Shown one piece after another: positions 4,411-37,501 of a stretch of DNA of 37,922 nucleotides (its first letter is position 1; each line of letters starts with the position of its first letter). The stretch is from Octopus sinensis. Lineage: Eukaryota. Location: positions 1 to 37,922 of the forward strand of contig NW_021829919.1 of NCBI RefSeq assembly GCF_006345805.1. The letters run 5' to 3'. The notes under the pieces are model-generated. The model searched no databases. It was given only the letters and a program-made list of their open reading frames with translations, and was not told the DNA's origin. A program made the translations under genes and the position numbers.

Positions 4411-4991
4411 CAGCAGCTTACAACCAGTAGAGTGGTGTATACCAGAATAAGACAGCAACATATTGTGCACCCATACAAAATGTATATATATGAACACATA
4501 TACTAATTGCTTGTAGGGACACCGTATTTTTTTTATGCAATCATAATATACTACAAAGTATATTAAAGATTTTATAAGGAAATACTCTGTCCTACCTGTG
4601 TTAGTAGTGCAATTCAATCACATTTAAATGTTATCTCTACAGAATTCCTATAGAAATTAGAGCTAGCACAGAAAGCTATCGCATTTTGTATATGACTATG
4701 TCTATGTAAACAATGCAATCGAAGTGATAAAATTAGGTAATGGATGTATATGCACATTTCAGGAGTTCTTGCTCTTTCTTCAGTACAATATCCAATCTAT
4801 TAACCCTCTATGAACACATTGTTTAAATAGCCACTAAATATAGTGGTTTAACACAATTGAATATACCAATTTTACATCCTAAACCCATTCCTGGTAACTT
4901 GTATGTACATACTCTTCTCTACTCTAGGTACAAGTTCTTCATTTACATTATTTACAATTGACGGATATTTGTCCTCATCTTGTTTGTTGTT

Positions 4992-5037
4992 AACACAACG
5001 CTTCGGCTGATATACCCTCCAGCCCTCATCAGGTGTC
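4992..5037 (-). ncRNA. Minimal type-I hammerhead ribozyme motif (GAAA mutated to GAAG)
   Basis: Minus strand reads gacac CUGAUGA gggcug-gaggguauau-cagcc GAAG cg UU guguu: stem I, core, stem II, palindromic short stem III. Confidence 0.75.
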
Positions 5038-5175
5038 TTGGGGAAATTTCAAACCTGTGTCCTCATTTCTAAGATATTTTTCGATATTGCTATTATTATC
5101 ATTATTATTATTATTATTCAGGTCACTGCATGAAATCGAACTCGGAATAACCTGAATAATAATATTAATGACAAC

Positions 5176-5219
<44 letters not shown>

Positions 5220-5280
5220 CAATAATAATAGCATTGAAAAATACCTTGAGAATGAGAACCCAGGTTTGAAATTTCCCCAA

Positions 5281-5326
5281 GACACTTGATGAAGGCTGGA
5301 GGGTATATTAGCCGAAATATTGTGTT
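5281..5326 (+). ncRNA. Minimal type-I hammerhead ribozyme motif (decayed copy)
   Basis: gacac UUGAUGA a ggcug...uagcc GAAA ua UU guguu; the consensus of the two arms gives an intact CUGAUGA...GAAACGUU. Confidence 0.7.
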
Positions 5327-5374
5327 AACAACAAACAAGATGAGGACAAATATCCATCAAATGTAAATAATGTG

Positions 5375-6018: not shown

Positions 6019-6410
6019 TATATGTGTATATATATGTGTGTTTGTGTGTGTGTATCTAAAAATATATATATGTGCATATATATATTTATATATATATGAT
6101 GTTAAACGATGATGATGATGATGATATATATATATATATATATATAAATGGAACAAAAACGCAATAGAAGTCAATAAAACATTCGGACAGATAAATGATA
6201 CAAAGGTGGACAGGAGAATCAACAATTAGGACAGGCAAAAAGAGACGTGTCATTCGTGGCCTTATTTCCTCAGTCAAGTACCAGAAGTCATAACCATTTG
6301 ATATATATATATATATAAATATGTAACGTGAAGAAACAAAAGACCTGGTAATTCAATACGCAAACATGACTCCGATTAGAGATGGATTCAAAGGACAAAT
6401 GTACATGATA

Positions 6411-6816
6411 GGCGTAGGAGTGGCTGTGTGGTAAGTAGCTTGCTTAGCAACCACATGGTTCCGGGTTCATTCCCACTGCGTGGCACCTTGGGTAAGTGTC
6501 TTCTACTATAGCCTCGGGCCGACCAAAGCCTTGTGAGTGGATTTGGTAGACGGAAACTGAAAGAAGCCCGTCGTATATATGTATATATATGTGTGTGTGT
6601 GTGTTTGTGTGTCTGTGTTTGTTCCCCCAACATCGCTTGACAACCGATGCTGTTGTGTTTACGTCCCCGTAACTTAGCGGTTCGACAAAAGAGACCCATA
6701 GAATAAGTACTAGGCTTACAAAGAATAAGTCCTGAGGTCGATTTGCTCGACTAAAAGATGGTGATCCAGCATGGCCACAGTCAAATGACTGAAACAAGTA
6801 AAAGAGTAAAGAGAGT
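6411..6816 (+). mobile_element. tRNA-derived SINE, family A (full length, internal TA/TG microsatellite)
   Basis: A-box tggctgtgtggtaag, B-box-like gggttcattccc, tail aagtaaaagagtaaagag; TSD atgata at 6405-6410 and 6817-6822. Confidence 0.92.
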
Positions 6817-11023: not shown

Positions 11024-11329
11024 ATTTTAATGCGTATTTTTTAATGTGTATTATCTAGCATAGAAATTGTTAACACAATAATAATAATAATGTTGTTTTA
11101 ATGTGTATTTTTTTTAATGTATATTATTTAGTATAGAAATTTTTAGTACAATGTTAATAATAATATATTTAAATCTATATTTTAGAATAGATAATATCTT
11201 TCATTATGAATTACTTTATGGAGGTTCTATCCCTTAATATTATTTTCCGGTTGTAGGGAGAGGAGATTCGGAAAATTCTTACAGGCCTGGTTTGTTTCCT
11301 CACAACTCTCAAAAAAATAGGTATTCTTT

Positions 11330-11780
11330 TAGGAAATTTTCTACAAATATCTCTCAGGTTGTAAAGATTAAGATTATATCGGCATTTAATGTGAAAAACA
11401 AAAAAATTGTTGGCCACGCACACATACAGACGATACACTAATATTTCTTGAAGTTTCAACTTTCATTTTGTAGATACATGTGATATGTCAGTATGTATGT
11501 GTGTGCGTCCAACAGTTATGTTATTCATATTAAATTCTGATACAATCGTAATTTTCACGTTCTGAAAGGTCTCTGTAGAAAATTTCATTAAAAATTTGCT
11601 ATTTTTCTGAAAGTCATGAGAAAACAGAACCGACTCATGGGAATTTTCCACAAGCCTCGGAAAATTTATTTTCACAACAAAATCTGATACAATCAGATTC
11701 TACCCTCATCTGAAGCATATTTGTTGAAAATTTCATTAAAAAATTTCTATTTTTCTGAAAGTTAAGAGGAAACAAACTCT
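11330..11780. mobile_element. MITE-like repeat family with inverted and tandem sub-repeats; related copy at 23885-24190
   Basis: gaaattttct(a/g)caaata...tcag...atcgg(c/a)atttaat and its reverse complement occur at both loci. Confidence 0.55.
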
Positions 11781-13939: not shown

Positions 13940-14004
<65 letters not shown>

Positions 14005-14220
14005 CAAACATATATATATATATATACACACACATACATATATACATATGTATATATATGACGGGCTTCTTTCAGTTTCCGTCTACCAAATCCACTCACA
14101 AGGCTATGGTCGACCCAAGGCTATAGTAGAAGACACTTGCCCAAGGTGCTACACAGTGGGACTGAACCTGGAACCATGTGGTTGCTAAACAAGCTACTTA
14201 CTACACAGCCACTCTTGCGG
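13734..14220 (-). mobile_element. SINE, family A (full length)
   Basis: Reverse complement of 6411-6816 with an expanded internal microsatellite. Confidence 0.9.
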
Positions 14221-15401
14221 CCTATGGCCACTCCTGCATCATACACACACACACACTGACACACATGGATATTACATGTGTGTGTATATGACTAAATGAA
14301 TGTTGAGATTCCAATGTTTTACTAGTTGTCATCTTAGGGAGACAGTGATATAAGGCATTCTCAGTTGCTGTAAATCCTGAAAACCAATGAAATAAAATAA
14401 GTCTCTAGCAGGCATGGTTAAAAGTGCTGAAGGGTAGCTAAGAGAGTACTAAAGAAGTTCCTTGTATAACCATGTGGCTTCAGGTTCAGTCCCAAAGAAC
14501 AGCACCTTGAGCAAGTATCTTCTGCACACAGACACACACTCGCTTTTTCTTGTCCACCATATTCACTCACAAAGCATTGGTTGATCCTGAGTTAGAGCAA
14601 ATCTCAAAAACCCAAAGTACTAAACAGCAGTACAAACCCTAAAACGTGATTAAGAAGTGAACATAGATATGTATAAACACACTATATATATATTATATAT
14701 ATATATATATATATACAAACATATATATATATATATATACACACACATACATATATACATATGTATATATATGACGGGCTTCTTTCAGTTTCCGTCTACC
14801 AAATCCACTCACAAGGCTATGGTCGACCCGAGGCTATAGTAGAAGACACTTGCCCAAGGTGCTACACAGTGGGACTGAACCTGGAACCATGTGGTTGCTA
14901 AACAAGCTACTTACTACACAGCCACTCTTGCGGCCTATGGCCACTCCTGCATCATACACACACACACACTGACACACATGGATATTACATGTGTGTGTAT
15001 ATGACTAAATGAATGTTGAGATTCCAATGTTTTACTAGTTGTCATCTTAGGGAGACAGTGATATAAGGCATTCTCAGTTGCTGTAAATCCTGAAAACCAA
15101 TGAAATAAAATAAGTCTCTAGCAGGCATGGTTAAAAGTGCTGAAGGGTAGCTAAGAGAGTACTAAAGAAGTTCCTTGTATAACCATGTGGCTTCAGGTTC
15201 AGTCCAAAGAACAGCACCTTGAGCAAGTATCTTCTGCACACAGACACACACACACACACACTCACTTTTTCTTGTCTACCATATTCACTTACAAAGCATT
15301 GGTTGATCCTGAGTTAGAGCAAATCTCAAAAACCCAAAGTACTAAACAGCAGTACAAACCCTAAAACGTGATTAAGAAGTGAACATAGATATGTATAAAC
15401 A

Positions 15402-15410
<9 letters not shown>
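13970..15410. repeat. Near-identical ~715-bp tandem duplication
   Basis: ~13970-14685 is repeated at ~14686-15410 (acgggcttctttcag at 14061 and 14774); few substitutions and a CA-length difference. Confidence 0.95.
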
Positions 15411-15449
<39 letters not shown>

Positions 15450-15647: not shown

Positions 15648-16191
15648 GGAGATATCTTATGGTAGCCGAATAGTATTTAACTGCTATTTCTAAATTTCGG
15701 TATATGGTGAAGTAATTTTGCTAAACCCTAATTATAATTATGTTTATAATTATAAAATTTATATATGTGTGTGTGTGTGTATACACCACACACACGTACA
15801 CATCAAAAATTAATACCCCATCCCTGTATTTAATAACCCTGTATTTAATAATTAATTAATTTCACTTAAAATTCCTTGCCTTACTTCACCAAGTATAATA
15901 TCCCTCACTTCACTATTAAAATTTTAAGGCAGCTGGTATCTGTACATATTTTTCTCACTCGTGTTTCTTTTTTTTCCTTAAATTTATAATGCTACTGAAA
16001 ATAGTAAAATATTTGCCAAATTATACATTAAATTCCATGTATTAAATTAGCATTTTCATAATGAATTGGGAAACATCTAATTTTTTTATATTGATTAATT
16101 AATACATATAGTTTTAATATAGTTTTAGTAACAGTAAATATTGCCTAACTTGGTAACTCATAGGGAAACGATATTATTATAAAGGCATACA

Positions 16192-16690
16192 AGGCAGCAA
16201 GCTGGCAGAAACGTTAGCACGCCGGGCGAAATGCTTAGCAGTATTTCGTCTGTCACTACGTTCTGAGTTCAAATTCTGCTGAGGTCGACTTTAACTTTCA
16301 TCCTTTCAGGTTGATTAAATAAGTACCAGTTACGCACCAGGGTCGATATAATCGACTTAATTCGTTTGTCTGTCCTTGTTTGTCCTCTCTGTGTTTAGCC
16401 CCTTGTGGGTAGTAAAGAAATAGGTATTTCGTCTGTGTTAGGTTCTGAGTTCAAATTCTGCCGAGGTCGACTTTGCCTTTCATCCTTTTGGGGTCGATTA
16501 AATAAGTAGCAGTTACGCACTGGGGTCGATATAATCGTCTTAATCCATTTGCCTGTCCTCTCTGTGTTTAGCCCCTTGTGGGTAGTAAAGAAAGAGGCAG
16601 CAAGCCGGCAGAATCGTTAGCACACTGGGCGAAATGCCTAGCTATACTTAGCCTGTTGCCACGTTCTGTGTTCAAATTCCGCTGAGGTCA
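16192..16690 (+). mobile_element. Head-to-tail cluster of three family B SINE units (16192-16422 full, 16423-16592 5' truncated, 16596-16690 3' truncated)
   Basis: Repeated ttctg(a/t)gttcaaattc...gaggtc and gccccttgtgggtagtaaagaaa blocks. Confidence 0.88.
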
Positions 16691-17329: not shown

Positions 17330-17722
17330 TTTTTACTTTTCTTGGTTTCAGTCATTTGACTGTGGCCATGCTGGAGCACCGCCTTTAGTCGAACAAATCG
17401 ACACCAGAACTTATTCTTTGTAAGCCTAGTACTTATTCTATCGGTCTCTTTTGCCGAACCGCTGAGTTACGGGGATGTAAACACACCAGCATCAGTTGTC
17501 AAGTGATGGTGGGGGGACAAACACAGACACAAACATCTACACACACATATATACATATATGTATACATACAATGGGCTTCTTTCAGTTTCCGCCTACCAA
17601 ATCCACTCACAAGGCTTTGGTCAGCGAGAGGCTTTAGTGGAAGACACTCGCCCAAGGTGCCACGCAGTGGGACTGAACCCGAAACCATGTGGTTGGTAAG
17701 CAAGCTACTTACCACACAGCCA
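17330..17722 (-). mobile_element. SINE, family A
   Basis: Reverse complement of the family A consensus. Confidence 0.9.
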
Positions 17723-17845
17723 TCAATATGTAGAGAAAAAAATCCATTGCGATTTTTGCCAAGAACATGCAAAACTACATCAGAGCAATATGTTTTGTAA
17801 ATAATCTGGTTAAAATTTAAAAAATTTAAAAACTTAAAAGGCGCA

Positions 17846-17973
17846 TATGGTTCCGGGTTCAGTCCCACTGTGTGACATCTTGGGCAAGTGTCTTCTGCTA
17901 GAGCCCCGGGCCGACCAATGCCTTGTGAGTGGATTTGGTAGACGGAAACTGAAAGAAGCCTGTCGTATATATG

Positions 17974-18006
<33 letters not shown>

Positions 18007-18196
18007 ATATGTCTGTGTGTCTGTGTTTCTCCCCCTAGCATTTCTTGACAACCGATGCTGGTCTGTTAACGTCCCCGTCAGCTAGCGGTTTGACAAAAGA
18101 GATCGACAGAATAAGTACTGGGCTTACAAAGAATAAGTCCCGGGGTCGATTTGCTCGACTAAAGGCGGTGCTCCAGCATGGCCGCAGTCAAATGAC
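17846..18196 (+). mobile_element. SINE, family A (5' truncated)
   Basis: atggttccgggttcagtcccac...ggccgcagtcaaatgac. Confidence 0.9.
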
Positions 18197-18405
18197 AAAA
18201 ACGGTTTGAAGAAATTCGACAAGACCTAAAACAGTAGTTAAAATCTCGGCCATATGCCAAGCTTATCATCTTCGAAATAGAAAGAATTCGGCTGAATTCT
18301 GGTTTTAAGCACTCCATATAACCCTTCATAACCTTGTAATTTTTTCTTTTTTTTGTTAATTTTAGAAAAGTTTTCCGAATTTGTGCTCTGCACACGGGTA
18401 TTCAT

Positions 18406-21258: not shown

Positions 21259-21300
21259 TTCATTTCTTACAGAGTTTATATATATATATATATATATACC

Positions 21301-21531
21301 GTTGTGTCTGGGGAGAGTCATTTTCTTTTTGTGCCTTATAATTTAAAACACTCACCGGTAAAATTTCCACTTATTTCTATTTTCTTAAAAGAGAGTCAAG
21401 ACTGTTCAAAAGGTTGCAAGACGCAACGAAAATTTTGGGAAAATAAAAAATAAGAAATAAGTGGAAATTTTACCGGTAAATGTGTTAAATTATAAGGCAC
21501 GAAAAGAAAATGACTCTTCACCAGACACAAC
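21301..21531. repeat. Fold-back inverted repeat with a degenerate hammerhead-like stem II + GAAA in the spacer
   Basis: gttgtgtctgg...ccggtaaaatttccacttatttc pairs with gaaataagtggaaattttaccgg...ccagacacaac; guugc-aagac-gcaac GAAA auuu at 21413-21435. Confidence 0.7.
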
Positions 21532-21610
21532 AGAATATGCTTCAACACACGAACTCATATAAAGATTCTTGCAAACTAAATCCAAAAACGAAATGTGTGT
21601 GTGTGTGTGT

Positions 21611-23532: not shown

Positions 23533-24206
23533 TGTACTCCGCGTTTTGTGTTGTCTGTCCTTGTTTGTCCCCCTTCTATTTTGGGCCCTTGTGGCTAATA
23601 AAGAAAAAGAAGAAAAAAAAAGATATTCTGGAAACTCTGCCTTGACCAGCTTTTTTGCACACTGTGTCGCGCTGATTCAGTCTGAAAACTAAACTACGAG
23701 TACAAAGTATCTGTGGAATCCTCAGCCAGCTTACATTATTAACACAGGATGCATCCTCTCTGTGATTCAAAATTACAGCCTTGTCACTCTCAACGACAGG
23801 CTGATTCGGTTTGAGTATTATGGCATATCTACACAAGTGTGCCGAATTTTGTCTTTTTTCCCCTAACTTTCACCACAATAGATATTTTATAATGAAATTT
23901 TCTGCAAATACCTTTCAGATGGCGTAGATTCCGACTGTATCGGAATTTAATAAAAGAAAGAAACTGTTGGGGACCCGTACACACATTTACTGACACCACA
24001 TCATATATCTACGAAGTGAAACTTAAAATTTTGAAAAAAAAAATTATGCGATAAGTGTCAGAGTGAATGTGTGCGTACCCAACGATTTTTCTTTTTCCAC
24101 ATTAAATCCCGATATATTCGCAATCTCTACCATCTGAAAGATATTTGTAGAAAATTTCGTTAAAAAATATATACTTTTTCATTTATGAAGAAACAGAATT
24201 ACATTA

Positions 24207-24978: not shown

Positions 24979-25108
24979 TACTATATATAAGATTCACCAG
25001 GTCTGAAGTTCAAAAGGGACAGTCTTGTTCACACACCATGTTACGCTGATTGTTCAGACAGCTAATATTAAGGGGACTTATGGGGACTTATATATACGCG
25101 GAATACAC

Positions 25109-25332
25109 GAGCTGGCAGAAACGTTAGCATGCCGGGCGAAATGCTTAGCGGCATTTCGTCTGCGTTACGTTGTGAGTTCAAATTCCGCTGAGGTCGACTT
25201 TGCCTTTCATCCTTTCGGGGTGGATAAATTAAGTACCAGTTACGCACTGGGGTCGATGTAATCGACTTAATACCTATGTCTGTCCTTGTTTGTCCCCTCT
25301 GTGTTTAGCCCCTTGTGGGTAATAAAGAAATA
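25109..25332 (+). mobile_element. SINE, family B
   Basis: 9-bp TSD ggaatacac at 25100-25108 and 25333-25341. Confidence 0.92.
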
Positions 25333-25808
25333 GGAATACACAGCCGTACATGAACAGCTCGTCACAGAAACCGACGCAAGATCCATTTACGTATCTACTT
25401 TATTATTTTTCTTGTATTTATCATACGTATGGAGTTACTTTGATAGTAAGTCTTTCAGACCAGGAGCCGTCCTGGGGCTAAAACAGCTTATAACTAACGA
25501 CATTTTACAACACCAGCATGAAACCCGCTAACACTAACCACTCTTCCACCAAACACCGCGACACCCACCGACACCATTACCAATAATAATAATACTAACA
25601 TAAATAACCTAAACCTAAACCAAAATTTCCAATTTTCAGACTGATATCAAGATACCAAGAAATGATGTAGTGTGTGTTGTCTATAGTAGAACAGTCGTTT
25701 TGTGGAGCTAGGGTGAAAAATCGATAAGACTAGTCTGTGTACAAACACACGTCGTCGTCGTCGTCGTGGTCGTAGTCGTCGTCACCGCCGCCTTCACCTC
25801 CGCCGCCG

Positions 25809-30970: not shown

Positions 30971-31019
30971 ATATACAGAGAGGAGGAGAGAGAGAGAAAT
31001 ACACTCGTGTGTATATAAA

Positions 31020-31418
31020 GGTGCAGGAATGGCTGTGTGGTAAGTAGCTTGTTTACCAACCACATGGTTCTGGGTTCAGTCCCACTGCATGGCACCTTGG
31101 GCAAGTGTCTTCTACTATAGCCTCGGGCCGACCAATGCCTTGTGAGTGGATTTGGTAGACGGAAACTGAAAGAAGCTTGTCGTATATATGTATACGTATA
31201 TATGAGTGTTTGTGTATCTGTGTTTGCTCCCCCAACATCGCTTGACAACCGATGCTGATGTGTTCATGTCCCCGAAACTTAGCGGTTCGGCAAAAGAAAC
31301 TGATAGAATAAGTACTAGGCTTACAAACAATAAGTCCTGAGATTGATGTGCTTGACTAAAGGTGGTGCTCCAGCATGGCCACAGTCAAATGACTGAAACA
31401 AGTAAAAGAGTAAAAGAG
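31020..31418 (+). mobile_element. SINE, family A (full length)
   Basis: Matches 6411-6816 end to end. Confidence 0.92.
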
Positions 31419-31502
31419 ATATATACATACACACACACATAGTGTATCTCTATTTTTCTGCTTTCTTATCAAATCAATTGATCTCTCCTTCACCTTTCCC
31501 CT

Positions 31503-31685: not shown

Positions 31686-32386
31686 AGCACATGGGTGAAT
31701 GGTTAAGAAGGTCACTTTGTAGCCCCGTGGTTTCAGGTTCAATCCCAGCACCTTGGACAAATGTCTTCTTTTATATCCCTAAACTGACCAATGTTTTGTT
31801 AGTCAATTTCGTACACCAGAACTACTAGGAAGCCCATTGCATATATATATATATTTGTGTGTAGTTATATTATATTTATATGATGTGTTATATATATAAT
31901 ATATATATATAATATGTATGTGTTATATTTATCTATATATATATATATATATATATATAATGAATTACAGATAAGGGCAGAAGAAAAATCTAATGCCAAA
32001 TATGCCGAAAAAAGACAAAATTGTCAATCACCATTATAAAATTATAATGGTGATTGACAATATTTTGTCTTTTATTCGGCATATTTGGTATTAGAATTTT
32101 TCTTTTGCCTTTATCTTGTAAATTTTCCCGAAAAAATTTTTATCCTACATTAGTTATATATATATATAAATGCATATAAGTGTATGTTAGTGTCTCTGTC
32201 CTCCTCCTATGACCTGACAACCGATGTTGTTTTGCTTACATCCCCATAACATTACAGTTTGACAAAAGGGAGCAATAGAATACAAACCAGGCTTAAAAAT
32301 AACTACTGAGGGTTGATTTGTTTAACTGAAACTCTCCAAGGCAGTGTTCCAGCAAGGCCACAGTTCAATGACTGAAACAAGTAAAA
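31686..32386 (+). mobile_element. Old family A SINE whose internal microsatellite hosts a fold-back insertion
   Basis: Head at 31686-31840 and tail at 32185-32386 (ccagcaaggccacagttcaatgactgaaacaagtaaaa). Confidence 0.75.
31965..32121. repeat. ~155-bp fold-back palindrome with almost no spacer
   Basis: ccaaatatgccgaa...ttgtcaatcaccattataa pairs with ttataatggtgattgacaa...ttcggcatatttgg; centre at ~32040. Confidence 0.88.
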
Positions 32387-32605: not shown

Positions 32606-33080
32606 ACATCATCATCATCACCATCATCATCATCATTTAACATCCATTTTGCCTGCTGGCAATGAGTGGAGGATTTGACCAGAGCTGGTAAGGCGAGGAG
32701 CTACACCAAGCTCCATTGTCCATTATTTCTTTATTGCCCACAAGGGGCTAAACATAGAGGGGACAAACAAGGACAGACAAAGGGATTAAATCAATTACAT
32801 CAACCCCAGTGCGCAATTGGTACTTAATTTATCGACCCCGAAAGGATGAAAGGCAAAGTCGACCTCGGCGGAATTTGAACTCAGAATGTAAAGACAGACG
32901 AAATACTGTTAAACATTTCACCTGGTGTGCTAACGTTTCCGCCAGCTCACCGCCTTTGTCCATTTGGCATGGTTTGTGTGTCTATTGTCCATTCTGGCAT
33001 GGTTTCTATGGCTGAATGCCCTTCCTAATGCCAATCACTACACAGAGTGTACAGGGCACTATTTATGTGACACTAGCAAC
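32606..33080 (-). mobile_element. SINE, family D with (ATG)n tail, interrupted by a family B SINE
   Basis: (CAT)n-ttaacatccatttt tail and ggcatggtttctatggctgaatgcccttcctaatgccaa block. Confidence 0.65.
32725..32955 (-). mobile_element. SINE, family B
   Basis: 9-bp TSD ttgtccatt at 32716-32724 and 32956-32964. Confidence 0.92.
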
Positions 33081-35841: not shown

Positions 35842-36304
35842 TATAACATACTGAAAATTAATATGTATTTCTCCCTTTCACATAAAATTTGTAATAAAAT
35901 GAAAGGAATATATGATAGTATTACTATCAAACAACAAAATATGGTTATGCCATATTTCTACCGTGAAACTGTCCAAAGCGTCCTTTACACAAAGGCACTT
36001 TGCAAAATGAACATATATAAATGAGGTCTTGACCTGATATCCTTTCATAGGTTTTTTTGTTTTTTTTCATCAAACAGTCTATAAGCTTTTTTTTCCTTCC
36101 ATTTATTTTTTCCACTTTATGGAAGTCAATAGTTTCTCTGTTGACACCCATCTCAGTTAATTTTGCTTTTCTCATAGTTCTGTGCTTTCTGGAAAAAAAA
36201 TAACCCTTGTGTAACTGAGATGCGATGTCAACCCGAAATTTCAAATGATCGTAATCGTTTGGAGGCAGAGGTACCTTGTGGCTTTTTACATGAACAATAT
36301 ATAT

Positions 36305-36535
36305 ATTTCTTTACTACCCACAAGGGGCTAAACACAGAGGGGACAAACAAGGACAAACAAAGGGATTAAGTCGACTACATCGAACCCAGTGCGTAACTGG
36401 TACTTAATTTATCGACCCCAAAAGGATGAAAGGCAAAGTCGACCTCGGCAGAATTTGAACTCGGAACGTAACGACAGACGAAATACGGCTACGAATTTCG
36501 CCCGGCGTGATAACGTTTCTGCCAGCTCGCCGCCT
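36305..36535 (-). mobile_element. SINE, family B (young), inserted in the piggyBac remnant
   Basis: TSD tgaacaatatata on both sides. Confidence 0.92.
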
Positions 36536-36571
36536 TTTGAACAATATATAAATTAACTATAGTTGGACATA

Positions 36572-36969
36572 ATGCTGCTGTTGTTGTTAAGCAACAAGAC
36601 GGGTAAGGGTGATTAGGTGATGGTCTAGGGCTTAGGGGCGGGAGACTCCAAACCTTGGAAAAAAAAACTTTGGTCGTCTTGTTGTAGTCGAGGGCTCTTC
36701 GTTGACGCCCGACACCACTGAGAGGTGGCCCTCAAAGTCACTGGAAATGGAGATCTCCAGGTCCAATGAACAGATGCTGCTGTTGTTGTTGTTAAGCAAC
36801 AAGACGGGTAAGGGTGATTAGGTGATGGTCTAGGGTTTAGGGGAGGGAGACCCCAGACCTTGGGAAAAAAAAACTTTGGTCGTCTTGTTGTAGTCGAGGG
36901 CTCTTCATTGACGCCCGACACCACTGAGAGGTGGCCCTCGAAGTCCCTGGAAATAGAGATCTCCAGGTC
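36572..36969. repeat. ~200-bp tandem duplication replacing the piggyBac catalytic centre
   Basis: atgctgctgttgttgtt...gagatctccaggtc occurs at 36572-36763 and 36775-36969. Confidence 0.9.
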
Positions 36970-37334
36970 GAAATTTTTGAACGGCTGGACATAGTGCTGG
37001 AGATATATGGATCACCATACCTGATATCAAGATTCCAGTAGTTCCACAGTTGAGGAAGCTGCTCGATACCAAACATAATGTTTATAGAAAAAAAAGCTCA
37101 CGTTTCTACAGTATTGGTTGGCTACCATAGTGGATCAGGTCTTCCACAAATAGAAATTATGCGTTGAGCATTTGTTTCCTCCGCAACAGTTTCAAAAAAA
37201 CTTTTCGGTAAATATATATATATATATATACCGGAGTAAACACATAAATGTGAAACAAGGTGGAAAAAGGAGTACTCAAATACCAGTGGTAGAGTAATAT
37301 GCTTTATTTAAAGCAGCAGAAAATTCAACAAAAT

Positions 37335-37372
37335 CTGTTACTCTGAGTTTCTCGTTGCCGTTCATCAGACAG
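37335..37372 (-). ncRNA. Minimal type-I hammerhead ribozyme
   Basis: cugu CUGAUGA a cg-GCAA-cg a GAAA cuc-a-gag UA acag. Confidence 0.8.
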
Positions 37373-37395
37373 TTTTTGCTAGATTCTAGCAAAAA

Positions 37396-37432
37396 CTGTC
37401 TGATGAACGGCAACGAGAACTCAGAGTAACAG
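37396..37432 (+). ncRNA. Minimal type-I hammerhead ribozyme (one A of GAAA missing)
   Basis: cugu CUGAUGA acggcaacga GAA cucagag UA acag. Confidence 0.7.
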
Positions 37433-37463
37433 ATTTTGTTGAATTTTCTGCTGCTTAAATAAA

Positions 37464-37501
<38 letters not shown>

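Follow-up and report, generated by a model that had tools for sequence, protein, structure and literature searches.

A tRNA-like head in the terminal repeat of a coding Penelope-like element of Octopus sinensis, with a putative Pol III promoter

The window, i.e. the whole stretch of 37,922 nucleotides of Octopus sinensis DNA that was analysed, contains what is almost certainly a head-to-head pair of 5'-truncated pLTRs of a Penelope-like element (PLE), and the tRNA-like head of which a remnant is kept belongs to the coding element itself. The family differs from known PLEs in that a coding element has a tRNA-like head with a likely Pol III promoter. Judged from the sequence, the RNA 5' end probably lies at offset -6 from the head and is made by Pol III from an internal tRNA-type promoter, and the short copies likely come from the 5' end of the element's RNA. 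A tentative extension, with the balance against it, is that the whole 2.9 kb coding element is transcribed by Pol III, that its RT-endonuclease is translated from an uncapped, tRNA-headed RNA and that SINE-looking copies are shed from the 5' end of this mRNA.

Results

The insert in the window

Positions in the family are counted from the first G of the tRNA-like head, offset 0 being that G. Self-comparison of the window revealed two inverted arms at 4945-5118 and 5200-5373, each 174 nt long and 89% complementary to one another. With the (AAT)n parts included, they widen to the arms in Table 1 (the right one from about 5150) and the whole insert becomes 4941-5373. Each arm reads outward as ACCTGA-(AAT)n-body-hammerhead-tail. 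The first-pass annotation had described this arrangement and had taken the inverted pair as inserted in a single PLE-type event; both points stand. Over 206 nt, the left arm has 91.7% identity with the family reference. The B-box-like piece that had been placed in a spacer at 5125-5149 is real too, with the coordinates 5124-5148 (minus); there is no spacer, only the 5' end of the left arm, which matches +46 to +76 of the family head at 29 of 31 nt.

Table 1. Features of the inverted insert, in coordinates of the window
Feature	Position	Strand	Basis
Left arm, 5'-truncated PLE pLTR, family about +46 to +247, short 3' end class	4941-5148	-	alignment to family reference
3' third of tRNA-like head	5118-5148	-	comparison with family head
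B box within head remnant of left arm, one conserved C to T	5132-5143	-	sequence comparison
(AAT)n run, left arm; limits approximate	5086-5117	-	sequence
Inferred PLE start codon position, left arm	5064-5066	-	frame read from sequence
Minimal type I hammerhead, left copy; A15.1>G at 5001	4992-5037	-	core pattern, folding
Head-to-head junction; one filler base separates the two 5' ends	5149-5149	.	read from sequence
Right arm, 5'-truncated PLE pLTR, family about +71 to +243/+250, short 3' end class	5150-5373	+	alignment
(AAT)n run, right arm, 25 units	5155-5230	+	repeat analysis
Inferred PLE start codon position, right arm	5252-5254	+	frame read from sequence
Minimal type I hammerhead, right copy; C3>U at 5286; loop 3 CG>TA, still self-complementary	5281-5326	+	core pattern, folding

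The head remnant of the window copy (minus strand) contains no A box. With the A box missing and the B box altered, this copy is an improbable source of Pol III transcripts. In both arms, codon 6 has become a stop, in the left one by CpG decay. A clean target-site duplication was not found around the insert, which is an ordinary dead PLE insertion of known geometry.

Both hammerheads fold into the minimal type I stems I and II, with z values of -2.3 and -1.6 that are weak alone. The left core reads GAAG instead of GAAA and the right one has C3>U, in agreement with the earlier observation that the two copies are damaged by different changes. Rfam matched neither a hammerhead nor a tRNA in the window, in the insert or in an intact family copy. 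Among family arms, the full core pattern is present in 43 of 77. Position N7 is polymorphic (38 T and 13 A among 52 cores), a change that is neutral for the core and gives Asp or Glu in the overlapping ORF. Hammerhead cleavage was rejected as the main source of 5' ends, with only 4 of 90 lying within 3 nt of the cut site and about 2 expected.

Several other features were observed in the window. A near-perfect (96%), MITE-like hairpin of 175 nt is located at 37297-37469, and self-inverted repeats are found at 31965-32121, 21294-21538, 11289-11631 and 23879-24173, the last two being related (74%). Another abundant repeat, whose start resembles a tRNA, occurs at 6400-6814, 17331-17723, 17844-18202, 31010-31419 and other positions; it is likely another SINE family, and BLAST showed no relation between it and the PLE tRNA-like head. 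A dispersed family of about 235 nt, 85-92% alike, is present at 685-924, 16191-16427, 25108-25337, 32723-32957 and 36304-36537. A recent tandem duplication (13951-14725 / 14661-15446) is 96% identical over 788 nt, and a 206-nt unit is repeated 1.9 times at 36573-36969 (94%). Finally, a 121-aa open frame at 35948-36310 (minus) ends in a Cys-rich stretch, which we take to resemble the C-terminus of a piggyBac transposase.

The tRNA-like head of the family

A complete 75-nt head (+1 to +75), whose A and B boxes are spaced as in tRNAs, is present in other copies of the family, bearing out the tRNA-headed parent element, with an A box upstream of the B box, that had been proposed from the window. 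The head was compared with 27 genomic tRNA sequences of six amino-acid types, a set outside which most isotypes fall. The best match is tRNA-Arg(TCT), with 49 of 76 columns (about 64% identity, z about 8). Other tRNAs reach a z of up to 7, and tRNA-Arg(TCT) is thus not a settled isotype. The head has no cloverleaf fold (z +1.2, no better than shuffled), and ARAGORN retrieved no tRNA from the window, a relaxed score giving noise only.

An exact 24-mer of the head has 3,221 matches in the genome and one of the tail has 9,889, with 0 for both reversed controls. Therefore, a chance origin of the B-box piece is ruled out, and the piece is not unique to this locus. Based on the same counts at about 6% divergence, some tens of thousands of arms are estimated to be present; a random 190 kb of the genome yielded a single partial copy, which does not suffice to give a density. 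Contigs from four runs labelled as four other organisms bridge the UTR-head junction too and have loose ends just before the head.

The coding element behind the arms

In the 2.7 Gb assembly, the order of the unit is head, (AAT)n, ATG (about +122), hammerhead (+151 to +195, inside the first ORF codons), ORF, stop codon, 29 nt, and again head and pLTR. The ORF has about 830 codons and an RT domain. All 30 loci found via the ORF 3' end (26 independent ones, the query's own locus included), using a query that stopped short of the head, continue into the tRNA-like head 29 nt past the stop codon, and 29 extend through (AAT)n to the hammerhead region, some with deletions. An autonomous coding PLE carrying the hammerhead tail, presumed earlier as the partner, was thus retrieved. 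At one of the loci (L007), decayed RT and C-terminal coding sequence is directly joined to the head. A direct pLTR precedes the ORF in 8 of 27 long loci, three near-duplicates having been dropped. One long copy, together with its flanks, is found at about 98% on contig C1 and again on three small contigs (L081, L088 / L241-L244), either as a segmental duplicate or as haplotigs.

The frame is open from the ATG across the hammerhead, giving 391 and 401 aa in two real copies. As it runs open through the hammerhead, what looked like the SINE tail of the window is the start of the ORF (first ~45 codons). RVT_1 matches in the middle of the ORF have E-values of 8.4e-6 and 1.3e-4, below the curated cut-off. 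The homologues are 529-847 aa long and PF00078 is present in 8 of 10. A PDB search gave weak RT matches only. Pfam identified no GIY-YIG match in the ORF product; its C-terminal motif VYSIPC..YKGET..R..EH resembles that of a GIY-YIG endonuclease. Based on its architecture, the family is assigned to the EN+ Penelope/Poseidon-type PLEs.

Inverted pairs and 3' ends

The sample of arms consisted of the first 90 exact tail matches in position order, all on contig C1, a few being two arms of the same insertion. An adjacent inverted arm was found for 52 of these, and direct short head-to-tail tandems are rare among them. The 3' ends lie at +244-252 in 43 arms and at +273-277 in 39, the reference itself having ended at +277; these two sites (+250 and +277) fit the optional PLE tail of 30-40 nt. 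Flanking duplications of at least 6 nt are present in 17 of 36 pair rows (33 insertions), compared to 0.6 with shuffled flanks. Twenty-two arms begin inside the (AAT)n run, and arms or heads are fused to other repeats at (AAT)n in six loci (L022 and L023, upstream of the arm; L138, L142, L144 and L147). The element PAc cuts preferentially at ATT (PMC11167929).

Where the copies begin

The head start is reached by 35 of the 90 arms, with 23 stopping at offsets -12 to +4 and 12 running past. The stop rate there is 0.059 per nt, versus 0.002-0.004 elsewhere outside the AAT run (about 17-30 times higher). Since 12 of the 35 extend past the head, read-through templates exist. By eye, 23 of 30 head-anchored loci stop at the head and 7 enter the 3' UTR (5 in a stricter script count; small deletions). 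Genome-wide, the exact upstream UTR 8-mer is carried by 377 of the 3,221 exact head matches. Each of the four full-length copies that extend to the head begins at -14 to +3.

A second set was based on 102 exact matches to the pLTR-ORF junction, of which 90 were fetched and one duplicate was dropped. Of the 89 loci, 45 are direct tandems of an ORF-start piece followed by a pLTR piece, the former ending mostly at +310 to +730. The rest comprise 26 loci ending in the ORF at the flank, nine internal deletions, seven ending by +290 and two running on. The tandems may represent cDNA that stopped and was then re-primed further downstream. Fourteen jump donors start upstream of +65; nine of these begin at -12 to +8 with a mode at -6, where four were mapped, and two extend into the 3' UTR. 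In three of the -6 donors, 1-2 filler bases are followed by a plain start at this G, and there is no fold-back. As the set represents ~1% of the tail matches and was selected for the ORF, it is silent on the share of short copies that come from ORF-containing RNA.

Pol III terminators at the jump sites were considered and rejected: 10 of 14 sites end in T in the first 29 loci, but 18 of 45 once all loci are included (p 0.008), and these ends are not tied to TTT runs. Three loci (L317, L318 and L358, at C3 8.41 Mb, C3 9.43 Mb and C12 22.4 Mb) have a common ORF-start re-entry point at +509. Either re-priming favours this site or the loci go back to a small derived master; in both L317 and L318, +509 is joined to offset -6, though the filler differs and the flanks are unrelated. 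At a single further locus (L326), the junction lies at a TTT run (+371) and holds an A-rich filler of 15 nt, as if the RNA end had been oligo-adenylated.

Discussion

Origin of the RNA 5' end

In the proposed mechanism, transcription would begin at the G of offset -6 and proceed into the ORF. This G precedes the A box by 13 nt, as is expected for a start of the tRNA type. By analogy with PAc, for which cutting and extension of both target strands and initiation at two internal positions of an uncleaved RNA are described (PMC11167929), the PLE protein would cut both strands of the target and prime cDNA on each at the internal positions +250/+277 of the uncleaved RNA. The two cDNAs would then join at their far ends, giving an inverted pair. 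A cDNA primed in the first pLTR would run off the RNA 5' end and leave a SINE-looking copy of 250-280 nt, with no need for a separate SINE master. In the window, the two cDNAs would have stopped early, at +46 and about +71.

No T4 run is present in the 2.9 kb consensus, which had frame errors; as the consensus lacks T4, Pol III could read the whole unit. For this family only, the absence is a weak sign, with a P of 0.04-0.05 with codon or dinucleotide controls and of 0.003 with a base shuffle, and G4 runs are absent too. In three raw RNA runs, perhaps from another species, family reads are about equal on both strands and molecule starts do not pile up, which fits copies inside other transcripts and is neutral on Pol III. 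Among the listed sequence records holding the family, no RNA record was found.

If the short copies were instead a true SINE mobilised by the PLE, solo pLTRs with intact boxes would be transcribed by Pol III and re-amplified in trans, the SINE being the PLE's own end. This is unlikely, although 23 of 30 head-containing copies have no ORF, both boxes are kept in many copies and position +64 is skewed between the short and long classes (p 0.014, uncorrected; a mild skew). Pieces of this kind can apparently move, as pLTRs alone are reported to have moved a host gene in trans in Adineta (PMC3846280). However, the head sits in the coding element, and 39 short copies compared with 41 ORF-linked ones (a set enriched by one query) reveal no fixed diagnostic base, with a divergence of 5.5-6.3% in both. 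According to the jump junctions, ORF-start sequence was on the templates of short pieces. PAc requires template beyond its RT start sites (the first 172 nt of the ORF; PMC11167929), which by analogy a solo pLTR may lack.

There are two further explanations. A hairpin of 3-4 bp spans offsets -6 to +3 and could be an RT stop in its own right: the nascent cDNA would fold there and leave a longer Pol II RNA, the head being a passive relic of an old SINE. The hairpin edge coincides exactly with the -6 mode, the fold-back 8-mer occurs at the head start in 366 of the 3,221 exact head matches genome-wide, and palindromic inverted junctions are described as common in PLEs without tRNA heads (PMC3846280). 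We consider this slightly less probable still than the re-amplified pLTRs, since the stem is so short, the three -6 donors mentioned above have no fold-back, 8 of 23 copies starting at the head adjoin unrelated flank with no inverted copy (by eye), and the boxes match the consensus though the cloverleaf stems have decayed. The least probable option, which we regard as quite improbable, is that the 5' end results from a Pol II start in the pLTR or from a longer transcript that is processed in an RNase P-type manner at the tRNA-like fold. Other PLE pLTRs have defined, often palindromic 5' ends and Pol II-type motifs, and the PLEs studied are described as starting in the pLTR, from an internal promoter recognised by TATA/Inr motifs or by H3K4me3 (PMC8557442, PMC3846280). 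Translation would also be accounted for more simply by a capped RNA, and Kojima argues that autonomous partners need Pol II (PMC10886601). A Pol II start, however, would have to fall by coincidence 13 nt ahead of an intact A box. Processing is opposed by a fold no better than shuffled; moreover, an RNase P cut is expected at +1 and not at -6. A start by Pol III from the internal promoter remains the reading we prefer.

SINE or terminal repeat

The first-pass annotation had regarded the parent element as a SINE with a borrowed PLE tail. This interpretation was abandoned: the head is the coding PLE's own pLTR at 30 of 30 ORF-end loci and is also located ahead of the ORF in full-length copies. 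Nor does a separate SINE unit hold, as short and ORF-linked copies are alike in sequence and divergence and the tail is the beginning of the ORF. No independent SINE that combines this head with a different tail was found as a donor among 30 head-anchored loci, where the other sequences following the heads are mutually different (by eye).

Measured against SINEBase (PMC3531059), the 49 of 76 matching columns exceed the tRNA identity of at least 60% over at least 60 nt, and the 3,221 exact head matches exceed the at least 100 copies of a short, interspersed repeat. A SINE should also be a non-autonomous family distinct from its partner, and here the head is within the coding element. Because the short and ORF-linked copies have no fixed difference and equal divergence, the family was not filed as a SINE; it resembles one in the look of its short copies and, likely, in its type of promoter. 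Non-LTR retrozymes are head-to-tail tandems of hammerhead units, and the pair in the window is inverted.

Comparison with known systems

The family resembles the Penelope/Poseidon EN+ PLEs PAc of Anolis (PMC11167929) and Pen2a_Av of Adineta (PMC3846280), for which a single RT ORF whose start lies at the hammerhead of the pLTR, a pair of 3' ends separated by about 30 nt (the optional tail), an inverted 5'-truncated pLTR, target duplications of 7-14 nt and partial tandems are described. For PLEs in general, an inverted pLTR, an optional tail and duplications of 8-10 bp are reported (PMC3846280, PMC8557442). Unlike in our family, a tRNA-derived head or Pol III promoter is not described for PAc and Pen2a_Av, and the word tRNA has 0 occurrences in the two papers (PMC11167929, PMC3846280). 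The PLE promoters that have been described are Pol II-like. According to Cervera and de la Pena (2014; PMC4209133), the minimal hammerheads of metazoan PLEs have a short stem I, a long stem II with a 5' bulged base and a palindromic loop 3, and form opposite-strand pairs 100-700 bp apart, all as observed here, whereas a tRNA-like module is unmentioned in the sections concerned.

A tRNA-derived short repeat with a type I hammerhead is known from the Schistosoma elements Sm-alpha and Sj-alpha (PMC2770079, PMC8490949). These are described as stand-alone, SINE-like elements, whereas the same layout is here the terminal repeat of a coding PLE. A tRNA-derived SINE with a hammerhead thus has a precedent in Sm-alpha (PMC2770079). 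A Pol III promoter derived from a small RNA is also located inside the terminal repeat of TRIMp3 elements (Cassandra, Helenus and Ajax; Kojima 2024, PMC10886601), where it is thought to derive from a SINE insertion; those are non-autonomous LTR elements of 0.3-1.3 kb, in contrast to a PLE whose ORF has about 830 codons. Non-LTR retrozymes are likewise non-coding hammerhead repeats related to PLE pLTRs, but are described as head-to-tail tandem arrays, with tRNA and Pol III unmentioned in the portion of the text concerned (bioRxiv 10.64898/2026.07.22.740005), whereas the copies here are dispersed, solo or inverted. In the literature covered, no PLE with a tRNA-derived head was found; Repbase, Dfam and subscription papers, which it does not include, may hold the family. 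Octopus tRNA SINEs were reportedly described by Ohshima and Okada in 1994.

Significance

Autonomous retroelements are generally held to be Pol II transcripts, Pol III promoters being a mark of non-coding parasites (PMC10886601, PMC3531059). If true, a coding PLE driven by a promoter of the tRNA type would not fit this division, and how an uncapped RNA gets translated would become a question. Should the whole element be read by Pol III, a LINE-like and a SINE-like element would be combined as a single unit. The jump junctions bear on how partial tandems of PLEs form, as cDNA that halts at the RNA 5' end or short of it appears to be primed anew further downstream. Annotation is concerned too, since a wrong SINE label would be given to tens of thousands of pieces. 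Finally, hammerhead SINEs such as Sm-alpha may arise in this way from the end of a PLE.
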